NCBI GenBank assembly: GCA_964022115.1
Contig: CAXIBC010000005.1
Coordinates: forward strand, 686-64,685
From: an uncultured Oleispira sp.
GTDB lineage: Bacteria; Pseudomonadota; Gammaproteobacteria; Pseudomonadales; Oceanobacteraceae
Direction: 5' to 3'
DNA length: 64,000 nt
In this document: positions 35,004-46,472 of the stretch, in pieces
How the letters are laid out: every line of letters begins with the position of its first letter
Position numbering within the stretch: the first letter of the stretch is position 1
The notes under the pieces: generated by a model
What the model was told of the DNA's origin: nothing
What the model saw: only the letters and a program-made list of their open reading frames with translations
Databases searched by the model: none
Translations under genes and position numbers: made by a program

Positions 35004-38000
35004 GTGAGTCAGAATAACGAGCTTGATCGTCAGGCGCTTAAACAGGCCGTGCAGCAGTGTTTAGCAAAAGATAAATTTCGTTTTAATCGAGATTTGCAAA
35101 CGATATTTAGTCTAGTGCAGCAAGGGAAGCCCGTTGATAAAAAATTGGCTAAACTATTAGCGGCTATTGAACGCAGTCAGCGCGCGCTGGCATTACGTCA
35201 AACACAGCTAAAGTTAGATTATCCTGAATCATTGCCTGTTAGCCAAAAGCGTGAAGCGATTTTAACCGCATTACGCGAAAACCAAGTGATTATTATTGCG
35301 GGTGAAACTGGCTCTGGTAAAACGACTCAACTGCCTAAGCTGTGCTTGGAATTAGGTTTGGGTCAAGCAGGTACGATTGCTCATACACAGCCAAGACGCT
35401 TAGCCGCAAGATCCGTTGCCAATCGGATTGCGCAAGAACTTGAAGTGGAAATGGGGCAAGAAGTGGGTTGCCAAGTTCGCTTTAGTGATCAAACATCCGA
35501 GCGCACTCGGGTTAAGTTAATGACCGACGGGATATTATTAGCACAAACCCAGCATGATAAATTCTTGTCAGAGTACGACTGCATTATTATTGATGAAGCT
35601 CATGAACGCAGTCTTAATATTGATTTTCTGCTCGGATTCCTCAAGCAACTTTTGCCCCGTCGCCCAGATCTAAAGGTCGTGATTACCTCAGCTACCATCG
35701 ATCTTCAGCGCTTTAGTGATCATTTTGATCAAGCCCCGGTGATCGAAGTATCCGGGCGAACCTTTCCGGTAGAAGATCGCTTCCGGCCACTGGTTCGTGA
35801 AAGTGAAGACGATACCGATTTGACTCTACAAGAAGGGATTTTACACGGATTACAGGAACTAGCTGAACAAGATCGCATTAACCAACAAGCTGGGGATGTA
35901 CTGGTATTTTTGCCCGGTGAGCGTGAAATTCGAGAGTGTGCAGAATATTTACGTAAGGTGATTGTTAATGATCGTAGCTTGCGCAATAGTCAAATTTTAC
36001 CGCTTTATGCCCGTTTAAGTGTCAGTGAGCAAGGTAAAATATTTACTGAGTCGGTTGGTCGTAGGATTATTCTTGCAACGAACGTCGCAGAGACGTCTTT
36101 AACGGTTCCAGGCATTCGTTATGTGATTGATTCGGGTGTGGCGCGCATTAGTCGCTACAGCTATCGTTCAAAAGTGCAGCGTTTACCGATCGAAGCGATT
36201 TCTCAAGCCAGTGCAAACCAACGTCGTGGTCGTTGTGGCCGTGTAGCTGATGGTATTTGCATTCGATTATTCTCAGAAGAAGATTTTCTTTCCCGTCCAG
36301 AGTTTACCGAGCCCGAGATTCAACGTACCAATCTTGCGGCGGTGATCTTACAAATGATTTCACTGAAGTTGGGTGATATTCATCAGTTTCCGTTTGTTGA
36401 TGCTCCTGATGCACGCTTTATTAAAGATGGTTTTAACCTGCTACAAGAATTAGAAGCCGTCAGCTCCAGTGGCAAAGAAGCTCGCTTTACCTTGACCGAT
36501 CTTGGTCGCCAGATGTCTCGTTTACCGGTGGAACCAAGAATCTCACGGATGCTATTACAAGCTAAAAAACAGCATGCGTTGCGGGAAGTATTAATCATCG
36601 CGGCGGCCTTAAGTGTGCAAGACCCTAGAGAGCGGCCAGCGGATAAAAAACAAGCGGCAGACCAAAAACATAAAGAGCTGGCTCATGAAGAGTCGGACTT
36701 TTTATCTTATGTGAATCTTTGGGATGCATTTGAAGAGCAAAGGCAAGCGTTAAGCAATTCGCAATTACGCAAGTGGTGTCAAAAACACTTTATTAATTAT
36801 ATGCGAATGCGTGAGTGGCGAGATATTCATAAGCAACTTAGTATTTTATGTCGAGAAATGGACTTTAAGTTTAATACTGAAGCTGCAAGTTATGAGAACG
36901 TACACAAATCGTTATTAGCAGGATTGCTAAGCCACATTGCACAGAAAGAAGAGGGGGCTGAATATTTAGGGGCTCGTCAACGTAAGTTGCAGATATTCCC
37001 CGCGTCTGGCCTGTATAAAAAGCGCCCGAAGTGGATTGTCGCAGCCGAGCTTATGGAGACTTCACGCTTGTATGCGAGAACGGTTGCTAAAATTGATCCT
37101 CAGTGGTTGGAACAATTAGCGAAACCTTTATTACGCAAAAGTTATTTTGAGCCTCATTGGAGTAAAAAACGCGGGCAGGTGATTGCTTATGAGCAAACCA
37201 GCTTGTATGGGTTAATAATAAACCCTAAGCGGGCGATTGATTATAGTCGTATTAAAATGGCCGAGGCGCGCAATTTATTTATCCTGCAGGGGTTGGTTGC
37301 AAACAACATTGACCTGAACGCGAAATTTTTTCAGCATAATATTTCTTTGATCGCTGAGCTTGCCGAGCTCGAGGAAAAAACTCGTACTCGCAGTTATGTG
37401 GTAGAAGACGCAGTTGTGGGCCATTTCTACGATGAGCATATTCCTACCGATGTTGCTTCGGTTATCAGTTTGCGGGCTTGGTTGAAAAAAGAGAAAAGTG
37501 AAGAAGAAAAACTTTATCTCACAAAAGAATATTTATTAAAACAAAGTGAAGACAGTGTTACCGATGCGCTCTATCCGAGTTACTTCAGCTATCAAGGTAT
37601 AAGCTTTCCATTATCTTACGCGTTTTCTCCTGGGGCAAAAGATGATGGGGTATCGATGACGGTTCCTGCCTCGGTACTGGGTCAAATATCGGTTGATCAG
37701 GCCGATTGGTTAGTCCCTGGTTTCATTAAAGATAAATGTATTGCCCTGTTAAAAGGCTTAGCCAAACCCATTCGCAAACAGTTGGTGCCTGTGCCGAATA
37801 CCGTGGATGAATTTTTGCGTACCGCTCACCCTAATGAGGGTGGATTATTTCCGCAGTTGATTCAATTTTTATACGCGAATTATCGCATTAAAATTGAACT
37901 AGAAACGTTAAGGGATATTCCTCTTGATGATCATTTTAAAATGAATTATCAGGTGGTTGATGATGAAAAGATTGTTGGTCAAGGGCGTGACCTTAGTCAG

Positions 38001-38939
38001 CTTATAGAGCAGTTTGAAGGGGTTGGGCAAGCTCAAGCAACGGTATTAACGGATAAAGAATTTGATCGTACAGAGATTAAACAATGGGATTTTTCTAGCT
38101 TACCTAAGGTCACTGAGCGTGAGCTGCAAGGTTTAAAAGTTCGCATGTTTCCGATGTTAATCGATCAGCAAAGCCATGTTGATATGACCTTGCACTCTGA
38201 TGAAGGTATTGCAGAGTTGTCGACGCGACAAGGGATTATTCGTTTATTGCGCTTATCTTTACCTGGGCTTGATAAAGACTTGCGTAAAGAGCTGCGCTTG
38301 CTCGACCCTGTGATGCCTTATGCTCAAGGTTTAACCTCTAAGCAAGCGCTTTATAATGATGTATTGGATGCGTGTTATAACCTGTGCTTATTAGCGGATG
38401 ATGATTTGCCTAGAAGTGAGGAAGAATTTCAACAGTGCTTGGATAAACGCGCAGACTTGCATAAAACCTTGCTTGATATAATCGATTGGTTGAAGCGTAT
38501 TTTACCCGCGAGACATCAGATTTTTAAACAAATGAAGGGTCAAACTACGATTGACCGTGCCTTTGCTTATAGTGATATTAAAGCTCAGCTAGGCGAGTTG
38601 TTTGCTGAGCACTTTATCGTACAAACTCCATGGCAGTATTTGAAGAATTATCCGCGCTATCTCGATGGCATCTTGTATCGCTTGGATAAGCTGCAGGGGC
38701 AATTGCAGCGAGACAGGTTACGCATTGCTGAAGTCGATGAGCTCGTTCAGCTGCATCAAGCCGCGGTAAAGCAGTTGGGTATACCTTTTTACGCCAACCC
38801 TGAGTTGTTGCATTTTTATTGGTTATTGCAAGAATTGCGGATGTCATTATTTGCTCAGCCCTTGGGAACGAGTGAGCCAGTTTCCAATAAACGATTACGT
38901 CAAAAATGGAATGATATCAAGCTTCAGCTGTCTCTATGA
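35004..38939 (+). CDS. hrpA: ATP-dependent RNA helicase HrpA (DEAH-box)
   Basis: 1311 aa. GETGSGKTTQLP, IIDEAHERS, TNVAETSLTVPG and QRRGRCGR. The long C-terminal extension is typical of HrpA. Confidence 0.95.
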   Translation: MSQNNELDRQALKQAVQQCLAKDKFRFNRDLQTIFSLVQQGKPVDKKLAKLLAAIERSQRALALRQTQLKLDYPESLPVSQKREAILTALRENQVIIIAGETGSGKTTQLPKLCLELGLGQAGTIAHTQPRRLAARSVANRIAQELEVEMGQEVGCQVRFSDQTSERTRVKLMTDGILLAQTQHDKFLSEYDCIIIDEAHERSLNIDFLLGFLKQLLPRRPDLKVVITSATIDLQRFSDHFDQAPVIEVSGRTFPVEDRFRPLVRESEDDTDLTLQEGILHGLQELAEQDRINQQAGDVLVFLPGEREIRECAEYLRKVIVNDRSLRNSQILPLYARLSVSEQGKIFTESVGRRIILATNVAETSLTVPGIRYVIDSGVARISRYSYRSKVQRLPIEAISQASANQRRGRCGRVADGICIRLFSEEDFLSRPEFTEPEIQRTNLAAVILQMISLKLGDIHQFPFVDAPDARFIKDGFNLLQELEAVSSSGKEARFTLTDLGRQMSRLPVEPRISRMLLQAKKQHALREVLIIAAALSVQDPRERPADKKQAADQKHKELAHEESDFLSYVNLWDAFEEQRQALSNSQLRKWCQKHFINYMRMREWRDIHKQLSILCREMDFKFNTEAASYENVHKSLLAGLLSHIAQKEEGAEYLGARQRKLQIFPASGLYKKRPKWIVAAELMETSRLYARTVAKIDPQWLEQLAKPLLRKSYFEPHWSKKRGQVIAYEQTSLYGLIINPKRAIDYSRIKMAEARNLFILQGLVANNIDLNAKFFQHNISLIAELAELEEKTRTRSYVVEDAVVGHFYDEHIPTDVASVISLRAWLKKEKSEEEKLYLTKEYLLKQSEDSVTDALYPSYFSYQGISFPLSYAFSPGAKDDGVSMTVPASVLGQISVDQADWLVPGFIKDKCIALLKGLAKPIRKQLVPVPNTVDEFLRTAHPNEGGLFPQLIQFLYANYRIKIELETLRDIPLDDHFKMNYQVVDDEKIVGQGRDLSQLIEQFEGVGQAQATVLTDKEFDRTEIKQWDFSSLPKVTERELQGLKVRMFPMLIDQQSHVDMTLHSDEGIAELSTRQGIIRLLRLSLPGLDKDLRKELRLLDPVMPYAQGLTSKQALYNDVLDACYNLCLLADDDLPRSEEEFQQCLDKRADLHKTLLDIIDWLKRILPARHQIFKQMKGQTTIDRAFAYSDIKAQLGELFAEHFIVQTPWQYLKNYPRYLDGILYRLDKLQGQLQRDRLRIAEVDELVQLHQAAVKQLGIPFYANPELLHFYWLLQELRMSLFAQPLGTSEPVSNKRLRQKWNDIKLQLSL

Positions 38940-39016
38940 GGTTAGATGATTGAAGCTTTCTCTATATTTAGTGAACTTTTTAATGGTACTTTGTACTAAC
39001 AGAATATAAGGTTGGA

Positions 39017-39052
39017 TTGCAGGATAATTTATTAGCTTGCACTATCCTGTAA
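39017..39052. promoter_or_regulatory. Imperfect 10-bp inverted repeat upstream of the repeat-peptide gene (candidate operator)
   Basis: ttgcaggata (39017-39026), 16-nt spacer, tatcctgtaa (39043-39052). 9 of 10 positions are complementary. It lies 23-65 nt upstream of the start codon. Confidence 0.3.
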
Positions 39053-39074
39053 TAACGCATAAAAAATTAAGGAC

Positions 39075-39482
39075 ATGGATATGACAACATCAACAGCAAA
39101 ACCTCTAGCGACAGTTTTAGGCGCAGCGTTTGTTACGGCTATGGCTCAAGCACCTGCTACTCAAGCCGCTGAAAACCCTTTTGCGACCACTGAATTACAA
39201 ATGGGTTATAAGGTTGCAGCGCATCACGAAGGCAAATGCGGTGAAGGTAAGTGCGGTGGCGATAAAAAAGCCAGTAAAGAAGGCAAATGCGGCGAAGGTA
39301 AGTGCGGCGAAGATAAAAAGTCCGCTCGAGAAGGCAAATGCGGCGAAGGCAAATGCGGTGAAGGTAAGTGCGGCGAAGATAAAAAAGCCAGCAAAGAAGG
39401 CAAGTGCGGCGAAGGTAAGTGTGGTGGTGATAAAAAAGCCAGCAAAGAAGGCAAATGCGGCGAAGGTAAGTGCGGCGCTTAG
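39075..39482 (+). CDS. Secreted Cys-repeat peptide: Sec signal peptide plus 11 (E)GKCG motifs. Candidate RiPP precursor of the bufferin/HvfA-like metallophore type.
   Basis: MDMTTSTAKPLATVLGAAFVTAMAQAPATQAAENPF..., then five modules: EGKCGEGKCG(G/E)DKK(A/S)(S/A)(K/R), one with three motifs, and a last one ending in GA*. The AAGGA RBS favours the second ATG at 39081. An MNIO/DUF692 gene follows 38 nt downstream. Confidence 0.85.
   Translation: MDMTTSTAKPLATVLGAAFVTAMAQAPATQAAENPFATTELQMGYKVAAHHEGKCGEGKCGGDKKASKEGKCGEGKCGEDKKSAREGKCGEGKCGEGKCGEDKKASKEGKCGEGKCGGDKKASKEGKCGEGKCGA
39228..39479 (+). repeat. Five tandem coding modules (51, 51, 66, 51 and 33 nt) built from the 15-nt unit gaaggYaaRtgYggY
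   Basis: Read directly. The copies differ almost only at synonymous third positions. The region is open in all six frames. Confidence 0.95.
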
Positions 39483-39520
39483 TTTGCTGCATTGCTTTAC
39501 TATTGAGTTAGGAGATCTTA

Positions 39521-40375
39521 ATGCCAAGCTATCCAGTTAGTGGTGCAGGTCTCGGATTAAGACGGGCCCTTTTGGGTCCGTTATTGTCTGTGGGCCCTGA
39601 ACAGATTGATTTTATGGAAGTCGCTCCCGAAAACTGGATAGGTGTCGGTGGTCGTCTTGGAAAGGAATTTCGTCGTTATAGCGAACGCTTTGATTTTTTA
39701 TGCCATGGATTATCATTGTCTATTGGCAGTCCTGACCCGTTGGATATCACTTTTATTCAACAAGTACGTGACTTTATGAAGCTGCATGGCATTAAGGCCT
39801 ATAGTGAGCACCTGAGTTACTGCAGCAGTGAAGGGCATATGTATGACCTAATGCCGATTCCTTTTACGGAAGAAGCTGTGCACCATGTGGCGCAAAGGAT
39901 TAAAACCGTACAAGATATTATTGAGCAGCCGCTGATTATTGAGAATGTCTCGGCGTATGCCCAGCCAGGGAAAGAGATGGAAGAAATTGATTTTCTAAAG
40001 GCTGTGATTGATGAATCTGACTGTCGTTTATTACTTGATGTGAATAATGTTTTTGTAAATAGTACTAATCATGGTTTTGATGCAAAGGCGTATTTAAGCA
40101 AAATTCCTACGCATAAAATTTCTTACCTGCATATTGCTGGGCATTATGAAGAAGCCCATGACCTGTTAGTCGATACCCATGGGGCAGAGGTTAAGCAGGA
40201 TGTATGGGATTTACTGGATTTCACCTATCAACAGCATGGGGTGATTCCAACCCTGTTGGAGCGCGACTTTAATATCCCTAGTGTCCCTGAGTTATTGTCG
40301 GAAGTCGATGTGATTAAGCGTCTTCAGCTAAATCATGGTGGCAGCATGGGAGAGTATGATGCTAAGCAAGCCTAA
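39521..40375 (+). CDS. DUF692/UPF0276 protein = MNIO (multinuclear non-haem iron oxidase, MbnB-like) RiPP-modifying enzyme
   Basis: GAGLGLRR, IDFMEVAPENW, HGLSLSIGS, YSEHLSYC, LIIENVSAY, LLLDVNNVFVNSTNHGFD, YLHIAGH, LVDTHG and PTLLERDFNIP form the characteristic DUF692 TIM-barrel block pattern. Confidence 0.9.
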   Translation: MPSYPVSGAGLGLRRALLGPLLSVGPEQIDFMEVAPENWIGVGGRLGKEFRRYSERFDFLCHGLSLSIGSPDPLDITFIQQVRDFMKLHGIKAYSEHLSYCSSEGHMYDLMPIPFTEEAVHHVAQRIKTVQDIIEQPLIIENVSAYAQPGKEMEEIDFLKAVIDESDCRLLLDVNNVFVNSTNHGFDAKAYLSKIPTHKISYLHIAGHYEEAHDLLVDTHGAEVKQDVWDLLDFTYQQHGVIPTLLERDFNIPSVPELLSEVDVIKRLQLNHGGSMGEYDAKQA

Positions 40376-41144
40376 ATTTATCCAGCTGCAGCAAACGTTT
40401 GCCAACCATATCAAAAACCCAGATAAAGTCGGTCGTCCCCAAGATGTTGATGATCGTCATATGCGCATTTATCGAGATTTGTTTTTTAATAATGTAATGG
40501 GATTTCTCAATAGTGCCTTTCCCGTTTTGGCGGAAATTATCGGTGAGCAACGCTGGCATCAAATTGGGCGAGATTTTTTCTCAAGACACCATAATAAAAC
40601 CCCTTATTTTCTACAAATATCGGCTGAGTTTCTGAGTTATTTAAAGCATGAGTACCAGGGGCAAGCCAGTGATCCTGATTATATGTATGAGTTGGCTCAT
40701 TATGAATGGTTAGAGTTGTATGTCGATGTTGAGCCTGAAGACCCTAGTTGTAATATAGAAGCGGACGTTCAATGGCAGCTTGATGGTGATGTATTAACTG
40801 CTATTCCCTTTCTTTCCCCTGTGGTTGAAGGTTGTCTCTACCAATATCCTGTGCATCAGATTTCAGTGCAAAACCCCTCACCAGAAGCGCGAGAAAGTGC
40901 CCTTATAGTATATCGAAAGCGTGATGATAGTATCGGCTTTGCCGAAAGCAATGCCTTCACCTTACAGTTATTAGAATTACTTAAGCAGCAGAGTATGACA
41001 GGGCAGCAGCTGATCGATACATTACTCAGCCAGACAGGGCTAGCAGGTAATGAAGCAGCCTATCATGGTGGTAAGCAGACGTTAGAACAGTGGCGACAAC
41101 TGGGGATTATATGGGGAGTGGTGGTCAATGATTCGGTCACTTAA
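40356..41144 (+). CDS. DUF2063-family protein (MNIO partner / substrate-recognition subunit)
   Basis: FIQLQQTFANHIKNP...DDRHMRIYRDLFFNNVMGFLNSAFPVLAEIIGEQRWHQIGRDFF is the typical DUF2063 N-terminal domain. Overlaps the DUF692 stop by ~20 nt. The start could also be 40335 or 40359. Confidence 0.82.
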   Translation: MMLSKPKFIQLQQTFANHIKNPDKVGRPQDVDDRHMRIYRDLFFNNVMGFLNSAFPVLAEIIGEQRWHQIGRDFFSRHHNKTPYFLQISAEFLSYLKHEYQGQASDPDYMYELAHYEWLELYVDVEPEDPSCNIEADVQWQLDGDVLTAIPFLSPVVEGCLYQYPVHQISVQNPSPEARESALIVYRKRDDSIGFAESNAFTLQLLELLKQQSMTGQQLIDTLLSQTGLAGNEAAYHGGKQTLEQWRQLGIIWGVVVNDSVT

Positions 41145-41199
41145 GGCGTGCCGCACTTATTTTGAAGCTAATATTTAATAGCCGTTAAATTAGGAGAAG

Positions 41200-41799
41200 A
41201 TGATGTCCATTATAACCTTAGGTCACTGGTTTCACGACCAGTTAAATATGACGCGTAAACTTGATGCTATTGCTCCATTGGCTTTGAGGCTCTATTTATT
41301 TTTTCCTTTTTGGATGGCTGGAACTAGCAAATGGGCGCATTTTGATAATACCGTCGCTTGGTTTGGTAATGCTGATTGGGGCTTAGGCTTACCCGCGCCT
41401 ATGGTATTGGCTTTCTTAGCGACCTGGACTGAAATTTTAGGCGCGCTATTTCTGTTGCTTGGATTTGCTACTCGGTATATTACGCTGCCGTTAATGATTA
41501 CTATGGTGGTCGCGATCTTTGCTGTGCATTGGCCTAATGGTTGGGCTGCGATTGCTGATGGTGCTGCGGATGCAGGGGTTGCCGAAAGAGTTGCGGCGGC
41601 GCGGTCAATTCTACAAGAGCATGGTCATTATGCTTGGTTAACTGAAAAGGGTAATTTTGTCATTCTCAATAATGGTATTGAGTTTGCGGTTACCTACTTA
41701 ATTATGTTGTTATCTCTGTTCTTTACCGGCGCAGGTAAGGTTGTCAGTTTAGATTATTGGCTTGCTCGGTATTTTAAAAAGCAGCCAGCCGATCGCTAA
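41200..41799 (+). CDS. DoxX-family integral membrane protein
   Basis: Four TM helices. LALRLYLFFPFWMAGTSKW ... EILGALFLLLGFATR is DoxX-like. The AGGAG RBS favours the second ATG at 41203. Confidence 0.8.
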   Translation: MMSIITLGHWFHDQLNMTRKLDAIAPLALRLYLFFPFWMAGTSKWAHFDNTVAWFGNADWGLGLPAPMVLAFLATWTEILGALFLLLGFATRYITLPLMITMVVAIFAVHWPNGWAAIADGAADAGVAERVAAARSILQEHGHYAWLTEKGNFVILNNGIEFAVTYLIMLLSLFFTGAGKVVSLDYWLARYFKKQPADR

Positions 41800-41838
41800 A
41801 TAATAGTTAAAGCGTATCGGCCTTTGGTGCTTAATAGC

Positions 41839-42852
41839 TTATTGATCCCAGCCTTGACTATGTTGCTGAACCAGCTGGCTCAGCATTTTGATATGGTCAG
41901 GGTTGTCGTTCAAAGCAGGAATGTAATGATAGTCTTGGCCACCAGCGGCTAAGAAAACCTCTTTATTCTCTAGCTGTATTTCTTCCAGTGTTTCTAAGCA
42001 GTCTGCTGAAAAAGCAGGGCAGATGATGTCGACACTTTTTACCCCGTCTTTGCCCCATTGGGTCAAGGTATGATCGGTATAGGGTTTTACCCATTCTTCA
42101 CGACCAAAGCGAGACTGAAAGCAGCATGCCCACTGGTCGGGTTCTAGGGCTAACTTTTCCGCTAGCAGTTTAGCTGTGCGCCGACATTGATGCTCGTAAG
42201 GATCACCTTTACGGGTATAGCGTTCTGGTACCCCATGAAATGACATGAGCAGTTTTTCACTTTGCCCATGTTCTTGCCATTGTTGTTGGCAGGATTGAGC
42301 TAGGGCGTCAATATAACCAGGGTTGTCGTGAAAGTCTCTAATCCAGCGCATTTCGGGTAGGTGAGGGCACTGTTTTAACAGATCGGATAGCTTGTCGTAA
42401 ATAGCCGCTGTGGTTGAAGAAGAAAACTGCGGATACATGGGCAAAATCAATATCTGTTCTACCCCTTTATGGCGTAAGGCTTGGGCTGCACTTTCGATGC
42501 TTGGGTTGCCATAGGTCATGGCCAGCTCTACTGGAATATCCTTATTGGTATCTGCTTTTAGCTGCTGTTGTAATGCGGCGGCTTGTTTTTTAGAGATAAC
42601 CAATAATGGAGACCCTTGCTTGGTCCAGATGCTTTGATACGCCTTGGCAACGGGCTTTGGTCGAATTAATAAGATGGCACGCAAGACAAACCACCAGATA
42701 AAACGAGGGGCATCCACGACACGTACATCGGATAGAAATTCTTTTAGGTAGGCTTTAACGGCTTTAGGGGTTGGCGCTTCGGGAGTGCCTAGGTTGACCA
42801 TTAAAATGCCAAATTCTTTATTGGTCGATGTCGAACTCTGTTGCTGATCCAC
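41839..42852 (-). CDS. hemH: Ferrochelatase
   Basis: GILMVNLGTPEAPT, LPMYPQFSSSTT, SFHGVP and FQSRFGREEWVKPYT are conserved HemH blocks. Confidence 0.95.
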   Translation of the reverse strand: MDQQQSSTSTNKEFGILMVNLGTPEAPTPKAVKAYLKEFLSDVRVVDAPRFIWWFVLRAILLIRPKPVAKAYQSIWTKQGSPLLVISKKQAAALQQQLKADTNKDIPVELAMTYGNPSIESAAQALRHKGVEQILILPMYPQFSSSTTAAIYDKLSDLLKQCPHLPEMRWIRDFHDNPGYIDALAQSCQQQWQEHGQSEKLLMSFHGVPERYTRKGDPYEHQCRRTAKLLAEKLALEPDQWACCFQSRFGREEWVKPYTDHTLTQWGKDGVKSVDIICPAFSADCLETLEEIQLENKEVFLAAGGQDYHYIPALNDNPDHIKMLSQLVQQHSQGWDQ

Positions 42853-43092
42853 AAAATCTGCCTTGAATAGGATGAAAGGCGTTATTGTAGTGCGAAATGA
42901 AGCTAAAGAAAAAGGCGGATTTCACTCCTGAGGCCGATTTAAGGCTCTGTCGTGGAAGAGAGTATTGTTTTGCTATATAATGTGCGCCACAATTTTCATG
43001 TGTCTGATAGTGTATTGATGACACGGCTTTATCCTTGTTTCCTAAAAAGTTTGTTAGGGAACCGACTTACATTGAGTTTTTGAGGCTATAAA

Positions 43093-45267
43093 ATGACTGA
43101 GTACGTTCAGAGTGGTGGCATTCAAGTTGCCAAAGAGCTTTACGATTTTATTAACGATCAAGCGATTCCTGGTACCGGTATCGAAGCACAAGATTTTTGG
43201 GCTAAGTTTGATAAAATTGCTAATGAACTAGCACCTAAAAACCGTGCGCTTTTAGCCAAACGCGACGATTTACAAGCTAAAATCGATGCTTATCACACAG
43301 AACGCGCTGGTCAGCCTCATAATGCGGCTGAATATAAGACTTTCTTGCAAGAAATCGGTTACCTAGTACCTGAAGGTGAAGCCTTTGCTGCTACAACGGT
43401 TAATGTAGAGCCTGAAATTGCAAAAATGGCAGGTCCTCAGTTAGTTGTACCTATCATGAATGCTCGTTTTGCCTTGAACGCGTCTAACGCACGTTGGGGT
43501 TCTTTGTACGATGCACTTTATGGTACTAAAGCGATCTCTGAAGAAGATGGCGCGACCAAAGGCCCTGGTTATAACCAGGTTCGTGGCGACAAGGTTATCG
43601 CTTACGCTCGTGACTTCTTAAATGATGCAGCGCCTTTGGCCGCTGGTAATCATGCCGACAGCACAAAGTACGCAATCGTTGATGGCGCTTTACAAGTGAC
43701 TCTTAAAGACGGTTCTACTACCGGTCTTAAAGATGCTGACAAACTACAAGGTTTTGTCGGTGATGCGGCTGCTCCAACGGGCATCCTTTTACAAAATAAC
43801 GGTCTTCGTTTTGAGCTTCAATTCGATGCGTCTAGCCCAATCGGTGCTTCTGATGCCGCTGGCATGAAAGACATCGCTATGGAGTCTGCATTAACCACCA
43901 TTATGGATTGTGAAGATTCTGTTGCTTGTGTAGACGGCGAAGACAAGGTCGTTGCTTATGGCAACTGGTTAGGCCTTATGAAAGGTGATCTTGCGGTTGA
44001 AGTGAAAAAAGGCGCAAGCTCTTTCACTCGTAAGATGAACCCAGATCGTGAATATACCGGTCTAAATGGCGAGACTTTCTCTGTGAAAGGTCGCTCTATG
44101 TTATTCGTTCGTAACGTAGGTCACTTGATGACTAACCCTGCAATCCTATTGGCTGATGGCGCTGAAGTGCCGGAAGGTATTATGGATGCAATGATGACGG
44201 TGATGATCGCGATGCACGACCTTAAAGGTAATGCTCCGTTCCAGAACTCGACTACCGGTTCTGTCAACATCGTTAAACCTAAGATGCACGGCCCTGAAGA
44301 AGTTGCTTTTGCTAACGAAATCTTCGCGCAAGTTGAAGATGCCTTAGGTCTTCCTCGTTTTACCGTTAAAATGGGTATTATGGATGAAGAGCGTCGCACC
44401 ACCGTTAACTTGAAAGAGTGTATCCGCGCTGCTAAAGACCGTGTTGTATTCATTAATACTGGTTTCTTAGACCGTACCGGTGATGAGCTGCATACGTCTA
44501 TGTTGGCGGGTCCTTTTGTACCTAAAACTGTGATGAAGCAGCAAACTTGGATTGGTGCTTACGAAGATTGGAACGTTGATACTGGTCTTGAAACTGATCT
44601 TTCTGGTCGCGCTCAAATCGGTAAAGGTATGTGGCCTATCCCTGATGAAATGGGTCAGATGATGGAGCAGAAAATTGCTCATCCTAAGTCGGGTGCAAAT
44701 ACCGCATGGGTTCCATCACCAACAGCTGCTACGTTGCACGCGATGCATTACCACCAGGTAGATGTATTTGCTGTTCAAGAAGGTTTGAAGTCTCGACCAC
44801 ACGCTTCTGTTGATGACATCCTAACCATTCCTCTAATGGATGATGCAGCCAAGGCGGCTTTAACCGCTGAGCAGATTCAGACGGAAGTTGATAATAACTG
44901 TCAGGGTCTATTAGGTTATGTTGTGCGTTGGGTTGATGCGGGTGTTGGTTGTTCTAAAGTTCCAGACATTAATAACGTTGGCTTGATGGAAGATCGCGCG
45001 ACCTTGCGTATTTCTTCTCAGCACCTAACGAACTGGTTAGAGCACGGTATTTGTAGCGAAGAGCAAGTTAAAGAATCGTTACAGCGTATGGCTGCGATTG
45101 TTGATGGTCAAAATGCTAATGATCCAAGTTACATCCCTATGGCCCCTGGCTTTGATGGTATCGCTTTCCAAGCGGCATCGGATCTTATCTTCAAAGGTAA
45201 GACTCAGCCAAGCGGTTATACTGAACCACTACTTCACGCTTACCGCTTGAAGTATAAAGCTCAATAA
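43093..45267 (+). CDS. glcB: Malate synthase G
   Basis: 724 aa, with MSG-type blocks (e.g. [35 protein letters not shown]). Confidence 0.95.
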
Positions 45268-45389: not shown

Positions 45390-46472
45390 ATGCGTATTAT
45401 TGCCTCTTTCATCTTATTGTTTTTACTCAATACTTCAGCTCATTCAGAAAGCGCGGTGGATGCGGGTTTTTCTATTTTGGCTAGCTCAGAGCCTGTTGCT
45501 ATTGATGATATGGTCAATGGTTGGGATGGCAGTTATCAAAAGGGAGAGCTGGCATTTGCTGATGCAAGCTGGGATATTGGCTTTACCCAGTCGATTGAGT
45601 ATGAGGGTAAAGATCTGGGTCGTATAAGGGTAGCCCGTGGTTATCGTATTTACTATTACATGAAGTTTCATAAAGATACTGCCGACTATTATCGTGCTCA
45701 AGAGCTAAAAAAAGAGTTTGCAGGTATTAAAACCCTAGATTTAGAGGTGAAGCACTTTGAAGCTCCGAGCCTCTCTTTCTTATACTCAAGCCCTGAAATA
45801 AGGCTACCTTTTTATAATCTTAAATCGGGTATTAAGGTGGGGGCTAATGTCTATCAGTTAGGGCATGCGCAATTTGCAGAGGTGAAGGGGGTAGCCTTCG
45901 GCCCAGATACGAGCGCTTTTTCTGCCAATATTGATTATCGATATGATCAATTTAAATTACCTTGGTTAAAAGATGAAAAAGAGTTCGAAACTGAAAAGGG
46001 GCAAGGCTATTCTTTTGATCTAGGTATAGCATTAGAGCAAGAGCACTGGTTTTTAGGCTTAAATGCGAAAGATCTATTATCGCGACTGTATTGGAATGCC
46101 TCAGGGGTAACGGTCGCTTGCTTACAGACGGAATCAGGAGCGGGTGCTGTTTGTGAAAGTAATGGTGGTAATGGACGTTCAGAGCTGACGTCAGTGTCTG
46201 AGCGCATTCCTGTTAGTATCTCTGGGGTATTGCGGAATAAAGACTACGATTTATCATTACATGCGTTTCAGCATGATACGTTTAAAAGACTAGGCATCGA
46301 AAAAGGCTTCAATACAGAGCTAGGGCGATTCGCACTTTTCTTGTATCATCCTCGCTTGCTCGGAACTTCTTGGCAGACCGACTATTTTAATCTTCAAATC
46401 GGTGCTGATACCCTCAAGTTTTCTAAGGCGCGTAATGTTCAACTCAATATGAGCATTAAGTATTTCTGGTAG
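45390..46472 (+). CDS. Putative outer-membrane beta-barrel protein, unknown function
   Basis: Signal peptide MRIIASFILLFLLNTSAHS. Alternating-hydrophobic strands. C-terminal ...NMSIKYFW (aromatic terminus). Confidence 0.55.
   Translation: MRIIASFILLFLLNTSAHSESAVDAGFSILASSEPVAIDDMVNGWDGSYQKGELAFADASWDIGFTQSIEYEGKDLGRIRVARGYRIYYYMKFHKDTADYYRAQELKKEFAGIKTLDLEVKHFEAPSLSFLYSSPEIRLPFYNLKSGIKVGANVYQLGHAQFAEVKGVAFGPDTSAFSANIDYRYDQFKLPWLKDEKEFETEKGQGYSFDLGIALEQEHWFLGLNAKDLLSRLYWNASGVTVACLQTESGAGAVCESNGGNGRSELTSVSERIPVSISGVLRNKDYDLSLHAFQHDTFKRLGIEKGFNTELGRFALFLYHPRLLGTSWQTDYFNLQIGADTLKFSKARNVQLNMSIKYFW

Follow-up and report, generated by a model that had tools for sequence, protein, structure and literature searches.

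Organization of the Locus

The stretch of DNA analysed here, referred to below as the window, comprises 64,000 nucleotides (nt) from an uncultured Oleispira sp. (contig CAXIBC010000005.1) and carries four genes on its forward strand in the order hvfA-hvfB-hvfC-hvfX. The first of them, an hvfA-like gene, encodes a Cys-rich repeat protein, and its repeat region is the subject of this study. The region is very probably the core of an HvfA-family precursor in an hvfA-hvfB-hvfC-hvfX operon of an Oleispira-like gammaproteobacterium, and its product would be a modified polypeptide that binds Cu(I) in one piece. Synonyms of the family are Buf_EGKCG/oxazolin and the Lys-Cys group of the “captophorins”.

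The precursor gene (39081..39482) appears in the list of open reading frames (ORFs) and encodes 133 amino acids (aa) from the ATG at 39081. The longest ORF starts at another ATG (39075, 135 aa). The start at 39081 is probably the correct one, because an AAGGA string (39069-39073) lies 7 nt upstream of it, too near to 39075, and because gene callers chose 39081 on the near-identical alleles L081 and L082. An exact-sequence look-up of the 135-aa form showed it to be absent from the protein collection, since gene callers begin at 39081; the two alleles were reached via a look-up with HvfB.

The protein begins with a predicted Sec signal peptide, MTTSTAKPLATVLGAAFVTAMAQAPATQA (39081..39167), which was recognized from the hydropathy profile and by inspection. 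It has Lys in the n-region, an h-region at residues 8–22 (Kyte-Doolittle means of 1.1–2.1 in 11-residue windows, with a peak of 2.09) and an A-x-A site, ATQA|AENPF, so that cleavage is expected after ATQA. Sec signals are a property of HvfA-family precursors (PMC11252979, PMC12452194). The signal peptide is followed by a conserved segment, AENPFATTELQMGYKVAAHH (39168..39227). In an alignment of 55 sequences, N32, P33, F34, L39, G42 and Y43 are invariant or nearly so; the segment has the pattern ENPF..EL..GY. An equivalent segment is found in nearly all precursors adjoining HvfB homologues, and it may serve as the docking region for the recognition domain of HvfC.

The core (39228-39479, 84 aa) consists of five modules of 17, 17, 22, 17 and 11 residues, translated as EGKCGEGKCGGDKKASK / EGKCGEGKCGEDKKSAR / EGKCGEGKCGEGKCGEDKKASK / EGKCGEGKCGGDKKASK / EGKCGEGKCGA, and agrees exactly in coordinates and translation with an initial annotation of this DNA. 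That annotation had also counted 11 identical Cys contexts, and all 11 Cys residues of the protein do lie inside EGKCG, with none elsewhere. Module 1 (39228..39278) is formed by EGKCG-EGKCG, encoded by two 15-nt units named A and B, and the linker GDKKASK, encoded by 21 nt. Module 2 (39279..39329) has the same doublet with the linker EDKKSAR. Module 3 (39330..39395) contains three EGKCG units, in the order A, A, B according to their codon phasing, and the linker EDKKASK. Module 4 (39396..39446) is again EGKCG-EGKCG with GDKKASK, and module 5 (39447..39479), EGKCG-EGKCG-A, forms the C-terminus before the stop codon (39480-39482). The five remaining frames also contain ORFs across 39130-39540, which were rejected as stop-free by-products of the repeat. 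An AlphaFold2 model of the precursor, made with the 55-sequence alignment, is of low confidence: the mean predicted local distance difference test score (pLDDT) is 42, the predicted template modelling score is 0.12, the core scores below 50 and no beta-helix is seen. Its disordered look would fit a flexible substrate but proves nothing.

The hvfB gene (39521..40375) encodes a multinuclear non-haem iron oxidase (MNIO, formerly DUF692). It matches NCBIfam NF003818 with 432.8 bits (cutoff 360) and Pfam PF05114 (MbnB_TglH_ChrH) with 8.7e-102, and the nearest solved structure is 3bww (4.4e-73). The next gene, hvfC (40359..41144), encodes a DUF2063 partner protein for recognition of RiPPs (ribosomally synthesized peptides with post-translational modifications). 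It matches NF050145 with 262.5 bits (cutoff 142) as well as PF09836 and PF22106 (DUF2063 and NGO1945_C), and its nearest solved structure is 3dee (4.4e-9). Both 3bww and 3dee have been assigned by the literature to the HvfB/HvfC pathway. The hvfC frame is open from 40335, and its likely start is 40359, as in the gene call on L081; with this start, hvfB and hvfC overlap by 17 nt (40359-40375). The overlap suggests translational coupling, and HvfB and HvfC are described as needing co-expression, or even fusion, for activity. The fourth gene, hvfX (41200..41799), encodes a DoxX-family membrane protein (NF050144, 239.2 bits, cutoff 80; Pfam DoxX). The closest HvfB homologues, with 82–88% identity, occur in Oleispira metagenome-assembled genomes (MAGs), which points to an Oleispira-like bacterium of the Oceanospirillales as the host.

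Family Assignment and Related Systems

The precursor matches the NCBIfam model NF050137, KCGExKCG_twice (“HvfA family RiPP metallophore”), with 124.4 bits against a cutoff of 19.5 and in four matched stretches, and all four genes of the operon exceed their curated NCBIfam cutoffs. The 11 exact EGKCG units are arranged as the KCGExKCG doublets that characterize the family. The 17-residue repeat described in PMC12452194 is likewise found, as three modules of 17 aa, one variant of 22 aa and a terminal doublet of 11 aa. The predicted Sec signal, the adjacent HvfB-type MNIO and the partner protein with DUF2063 and a RiPP recognition element (PME type 1) are each present, and so is the DoxX-family HvfX, which is frequent but not universal in the family. 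When loci were retrieved via HvfB alone, a precursor adjoined HvfB in about 75 of 80, and a homologue search in which 8000 candidates were scored gave 6912 at E <= 0.001. The initial annotation had proposed a secreted, Cys-modified, metal-binding RiPP precursor. The curated family match of the precursor and its position directly upstream of hvfB, hvfC and hvfX support this proposal.

Two related groups can be set apart. Methanobactins do not include this system: the MbnB model TIGR04159 gives 47.9 bits against a cutoff of 325, and the precursor carries repeats behind a signal peptide. The bufferins of the Buf1 (DUF2282)/BufB type do not include it either, as the precursor is without a Pfam hit and the BufB model gives 263.3 bits against 310; they are a closely related sister group.

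Much is known about the chemistry of the family. HvfA of Haemophilus influenzae has three AEGKCGEGKCG motifs. Every one of their six Cys becomes lighter by 4 Da, for which both HvfB and HvfC are required, and modified HvfA takes up about one Cu(I) for each modified Cys pair (PMC11252979). The earlier assignment of this modification as oxazolone/thioamide has been replaced by 5-thiooxazole (bioRxiv 10.64898/2026.06.05.730506), and the class bears the name captophorins (PMC12668002). In its active state the enzyme contains a mixed-valent diiron cofactor, and without HvfC this cluster does not form. A survey of Buf_EGKCG/oxazolin precursors covered about 2000 proteins of 31–506 aa; the 17-residue double-EGKCG repeat is a described trait, the largest member has 58 Cys, and the family has been likened to copper storage proteins (PMC12452194). 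From FonA fragments containing 2, 3 and 2 repeats, 8, 12 and 8 H are removed, and a peptide with one repeat stays unmodified while a peptide with two is modified (PMC12668002).

The oxazolin HvfA of the hvfABCX operon of H. influenzae resembles the precursor described here in its Sec signal, its C-terminal (A)EGKCGEGKCG doublets with short linkers, and its adjacent MNIO HvfB, DUF2063 protein HvfC and DoxX protein HvfX; conversion of Cys to 5-thiooxazole and binding of one Cu(I) per pair would be expected by analogy. The two systems differ in the number of Cys of the modified type (11 in five modules here, 6 in three modules in HvfA), in the single triple run, in gene order (A-B-C-X here and X-A-B-C in H. 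influenzae) and in their hosts, which are a free-living marine bacterium here and nontypeable H. influenzae, a pathogen. Compared with the Buf_EGKCG/oxazolin type 1 of PMC12452194, there is no essential difference, except that a beta-helix was reported there for a mid-size Pseudoalteromonas protein, whereas the model of the present precursor (pLDDT 42) has none with confidence. Fontiphorin FonA of Fontimonas thermophila and gonophorin (PMC12668002) share the EGKCG 5-mer repeats and differ in linker sequences, module number and organism. FonA offers a precedent for the triple run, as its seven sites are arranged 2-3-2 and all carry the modification; the double repeat is the minimal substrate. 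MmrA of Microbulbifer, the precursor of bulbicupramide, is alike in its cassette architecture (three cassettes with two Cys each, flanked by Lys repeats); it has 5–8 Cys depending on the strain, the reported cluster comprises only mmrA-C with no protease nearby, and the product was characterized after in vitro trypsin digestion (PMC12538549). Methanobactin (MbnA/MbnBC) is similar in that it is a ribosomal peptide in which an MNIO and its partner oxidize Cys to an N,S-donor heterocycle chelating Cu(I). Its precursors, however, have a short leader-core organization without Sec signal or repeats, the modification is oxazolone/thioamide, and MbnC belongs to another partner family.

Repeat Structure and Codon Phasing

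Tandem Repeats Finder detected nested periods of 15, 51, 66 and 117 nt in the core, with scores of up to 377. Among the eleven 15-nt units, 4 of the 15 columns vary (GGC/GGT, AAA/AAG, TGC/TGT and GGC/GGT). The initial annotation had noted that variation is almost confined to synonymous sites, and this holds strictly: the four variable columns all fall among the five third codon positions, for which the chance is 5/1365 = 0.004. Nonsynonymous divergence among the 11 units is nil (pN = 0), and the synonymous value (pS) is about 0.59, as calculated from 1.78 differences and about 3 synonymous sites per unit.

These synonymous differences follow a phase. Each module opens with an A unit, GAA GGC AAA TGC GGY, and its last unit is a B unit, GAA GGT AAG TGC GGY (Fisher P = 0.002 for the GGC/GGT contrast, 0.015 for that of AAA/AAG). 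Of the five doublets, three have identical DNA. Consequently, the true period of the DNA is a module of 51 nt, in which A and B are followed by the 21-nt linker, and the variation between units is mostly one fixed A/B difference that has been copied along with this module.

The codons themselves are restricted. In the EGKCG units of the window and of the loci L001-L009, Glu is encoded by GAA in 89 of 90 cases, whereas this codon has a share of 62% in a background of 25 long window ORFs. For Gly, GGA or GGG is used in 7 of 180 cases (32% in the background), and for Lys, AAG is used in 60 of 90 (38% in the background). Such a restricted, toggling codon set suggests either strong translational codon bias or the avoidance of Shine-Dalgarno-like GAGG/GGAGG strings.

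The initial annotation had noted that the module with three motifs breaks the pairing. This module is nothing special. Triples occur in 11 of 120 close homologues (about 9%). Depending on the lineage, the module concerned is the first, second, third or last one, and triples are polymorphic between near-identical alleles; the 117 nt missing from L082 include the extra unit. The triple is thus a slippage product in which a 15-nt A unit has been duplicated, rather than a designed exception. A single 117-nt segmental duplication was also considered as its origin and was rejected, since period 117 (87% match) fits no better than period 51 (84–89%); it is one possible history.

Variation in Repeat Number and Concerted Evolution

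Repeat number had been expected to vary between strains, and it does, as alleles with 99–100% identical flanks differ by 15, 51 or 117 nt in the core. The window and L081 (2-2-3-2-2) differ by 117 nt from L082 (2-2-2), with near-identical flanks and a few substitutions. L086 and L098 have four and five modules, a difference of 51 nt, and their flanks are 100% identical over 520 nt. A difference of 15 nt separates L090 and L103 (2-2-2-2-2) from L091 (3-2-2-2-2), with 99–100% identity downstream, and another separates L087 from L094, which end in a doublet and a single unit and are 100% identical downstream. All these differences are in-frame and are multiples of the unit or the module. Orthologues of the Oleispira group have 6–11 Cys, in arrangements such as 2-2-2-2-2, 2-3-2-2, 2-2-2-2-1 and 2-2-2-1-2. 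Among the best 120 of the 6912 homologues, 76% of unit runs are doublets, 21% are singles and 3% are triples, and linker length peaks at 6–7 aa. For the alleles compared above, both length states were seen again in independent assemblies.

Contamination was encountered in some of the public data. The Nextera adapter CTGTCTCTTATACACATCT is present in the public metagenome contigs L097 (- strand, 3274) and L086 (- strand, 9598). In L097 it truncates the precursor ORF, which ends in ...LSLIHISEPTRPY, and in L086 it lies at the contig end, about 0.8 kb away from the gene. Some short alleles may be assembly artefacts.

The modules of one gene resemble each other more than those of different genes. 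For 36 standard modules from ten genes, the amino-acid identity of the linkers is 0.87 within genes and 0.54 between them, and the nucleotide identity of the doublets is 0.903 within and 0.868 between; none of 5000 label shuffles reached either gap. The linkers are gene-specific, with GDKKASK in the window, GDKKAAG in L001, GEKKAAK in L004 and L006, and ADKKAAK in Pseudoalteromonas; in Oceanobacter, GSAKSSG occurs seven times. The linkers are homogenized within genes, and this is concerted evolution.

A comparison of the window with L081 over 39040-39530 shows five differences within the gene. All of them lie in the 252-nt core and none in the 153-nt leader or in the upstream flank; one further difference is found just downstream of the gene. 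Of the four synonymous changes, three produce a variant that another repeat of this gene in the window already has, and the fourth is a GGC/GGT toggle of a kind found in other parts of the array at the corresponding unit position. The pattern looks like intragenic gene conversion.

Proposed Function and Alternative Explanations

The following sequence of events can be proposed. HvfC would bind both HvfB and the precursor, and the HvfBC iron enzyme would use O2 to convert each EGKCG Cys to a 5-thiooxazole, so that each Cys would lose 4 Da and the product would absorb near 302 nm. This should apply to all 11 Cys, the triple run included. The Sec signal peptide would drive export and then be removed. 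What is left, a flexible polypeptide of about 104 residues with much Gly, Lys and Glu, would stay uncut, either in the periplasm or in the surroundings of the cell. Such a polypeptide could bind about five Cu(I), roughly one per neighbouring heterocycle pair, through N,S-donors five residues apart, and could act as a periplasmic copper buffer or scavenger. The idea in the initial annotation that paired GKCG-E-GKCG motifs form metal sites agrees, by analogy, with the published value of about one Cu(I) per modified Cys pair (PMC11252979). At the level of DNA, the 51-nt module would be amplified, deleted and homogenized through unequal recombination and slippage, while purifying selection would fix EGKCG and the linkers would drift between lineages.

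Several observations weigh against this reading or narrow it. With the strict HvfA equivalog model NF050188, the precursor scores 76.2 bits, short of the cutoff of 95, and it lacks the two N-terminal Cys that form a disulfide in H. influenzae HvfA. For these reasons, the precursor is best classed, from its sequence, as a family member and not as an HvfA orthologue sensu stricto, and the details of recognition may differ from those of H. influenzae HvfA. No copper-responsive regulator or transporter was found when sought beside the operon. The low-confidence AlphaFold2 model neither reproduces nor refutes the beta-helix published for a mid-size family member. One group suspects that Cu binding is stochastic and not ordered, and the same work considers both one polypeptide and smaller peptides released by a host protease as the native EGKCG product (PMC12668002). 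Individual length variants could be collapses of short-read assemblies. Lastly, the modification, export and Cu(I) binding of the present precursor are assigned by analogy with characterized homologues; the gene anatomy, the membership of the four genes in their families, the phased codons, the concerted evolution and the length polymorphism were observed directly.

Three other explanations have to be weighed. The gene might encode a multi-core precursor, in which, after modification and export, a host protease cuts the Lys-rich linkers (DKK/EKK) and releases five small bis- or tris-thiooxazole chalkophores. A KK pair is indeed present in every linker of the gene, the doublet is the minimal unit that the enzyme can modify, and the native product, as noted above, may consist of protease-derived peptides (both PMC12668002). 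If so, changes in module number (6 to 11 Cys in near-identical alleles) would tune the dose of chelator and not the capacity of one protein. Nevertheless, the linkers differ across genera (GSAKSSG in Oceanobacter, Met/Lys-rich in Thiohalobacter, DKAK/DKKKS in Cycloclasticus), so there is no conserved recognition site flanking the cores. No protease gene lies in or beside the operon here, nor in Microbulbifer (PMC12538549), and thus neither hallmark of cyanobactin-like multi-core RiPPs, conserved flanking protease sites or a protease among the neighbours, is found. Heterologously produced oxazolin, fontiphorin and gonophorin were recovered at full length minus the signal peptide (PMC11252979, PMC12668002), and members with up to 58 Cys have been likened to copper storage proteins (PMC12452194). 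The multi-core explanation is consequently regarded as rather unlikely, and the same low probability applies to the version in which a dibasic-specific housekeeping protease of the envelope yields four chalkophores of 17 to 22 residues and one of 11 residues. A still less probable explanation is that the protein remains unmodified, as a low-complexity Cys-rich periplasmic protein with a thiolate-based copper-storage or redox role that is a chance neighbour of MNIO genes. Unmodified HvfA does associate weakly with some copper (PMC11252979), and many databases label such proteins “uncharacterized low-complexity protein”. Chance proximity, however, is hard to reconcile with the pairing of precursor and HvfB in most of the loci found through HvfB alone. 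Moreover, precursors without MNIO and partner genes are confined to very few genomes (PMC12452194), and wherever an EGKCG peptide has been tested, the enzyme pair of its own system modifies it (PMC11252979, PMC12668002, PMC12538549). Of the readings considered here, this one is the most improbable.

The third explanation concerns the DNA. It had been suggested in the initial annotation that the synonymous differences are selected, with codon scrambling lowering the identity of the repeats and protecting the array from recombinational loss. The variable sites among the 11 units are all synonymous, and in L010 and others, modules that are the same in amino acids show many third-position differences, both of which speak for this idea. 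In a test with 2000 permutations, synonymous codons were swapped among core positions with the same amino acid. The real core has 43 shared 20-mer pairs compared with 12.4 in the permuted cores (P = 0.008), and its longest exact repeat is 34 nt compared with a permuted mean of 26 nt. Among 12 genes tested, none has a deficit of repeats and 8 have a significant excess of shared 20-mers. The core is thus more repetitive than codon-random sequence, and the idea of divergence to avoid recombination is unsupported. In addition, the differences are A/B-phased and inherited with the 51-nt module, identical doublets make up three of five, and the arrays do gain and lose units, with indels of 15, 51 and 117 nt between near-identical alleles. 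Selected codon scrambling is therefore held to be very unlikely; ordinary purifying selection on a recently duplicated or homogenized array explains the pattern.

The retained reading is that of a modified, Cu(I)-binding polypeptide kept in one piece. Most of what it says about the family is not new. The curated HvfA-family model of NCBI would name the gene automatically, and the architecture, the chemistry and the copper binding were published between 2024 and 2026, as were the open questions raised by the initial annotation. The question of whether the product stays intact or is cleaved is a genuine one for the field. What is added here is the phased 51-nt module, the rejection of codon scrambling, by which a tempting explanation of repeat stability is removed, and direct evidence for the rapid gain and loss of units. 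Since in-frame gains and losses of 15, 51 and 117 nt are recurrent, the number of copper sites per molecule would be a rapidly variable trait.

Neighbouring Genes and Other Loci

The neighbours of the operon are hrpA, hemH, the genes for malate synthase G and a fatty-acid CoA ligase, and an unannotated ORF of 360 aa. This ORF (45390-46472, + strand) has a signal-peptide-like N-terminus and is without an NCBIfam match at E <= 1e-5. A scan with Rfam over 38000-43200 (E <= 1) gave a single, chance snoRNA-like hit (E = 0.98) and no known regulatory RNA, and in a scan for promoters and terminators over 38850-42000, the counts did not exceed the expectation from shuffled sequence. A 9-bp hairpin at 39469-39493 spans the stop codon of the precursor and lies between hvfA and hvfB. 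It is not distinguishable from chance; it might attenuate read-through and so raise the ratio of precursor to enzyme.

Other architectures were met among the homologous loci. In L039, L047, L049 and L052, the precursor encoded upstream of HvfB has a signal peptide, and two EF-hand-like loops (DADGDG... and D.NGDG...) are inserted between its EGKCG doublets. The published EF-hand type has a short EGKCG domain and C-terminal EF-hands, without 17-residue repeats (PMC12452194), and the four loci may represent an intermediate architecture. In a Methylomarinum MAG (OZ255706.1, 609949-629459), two HvfB-type loci, L064 and L066, lie about 10.7 kb apart on a single chromosome and are 87% identical position by position. 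Each of them encodes the same precursor of 245 aa, in which units of the EGKCG, EGSCG and EMSCG types are mixed.

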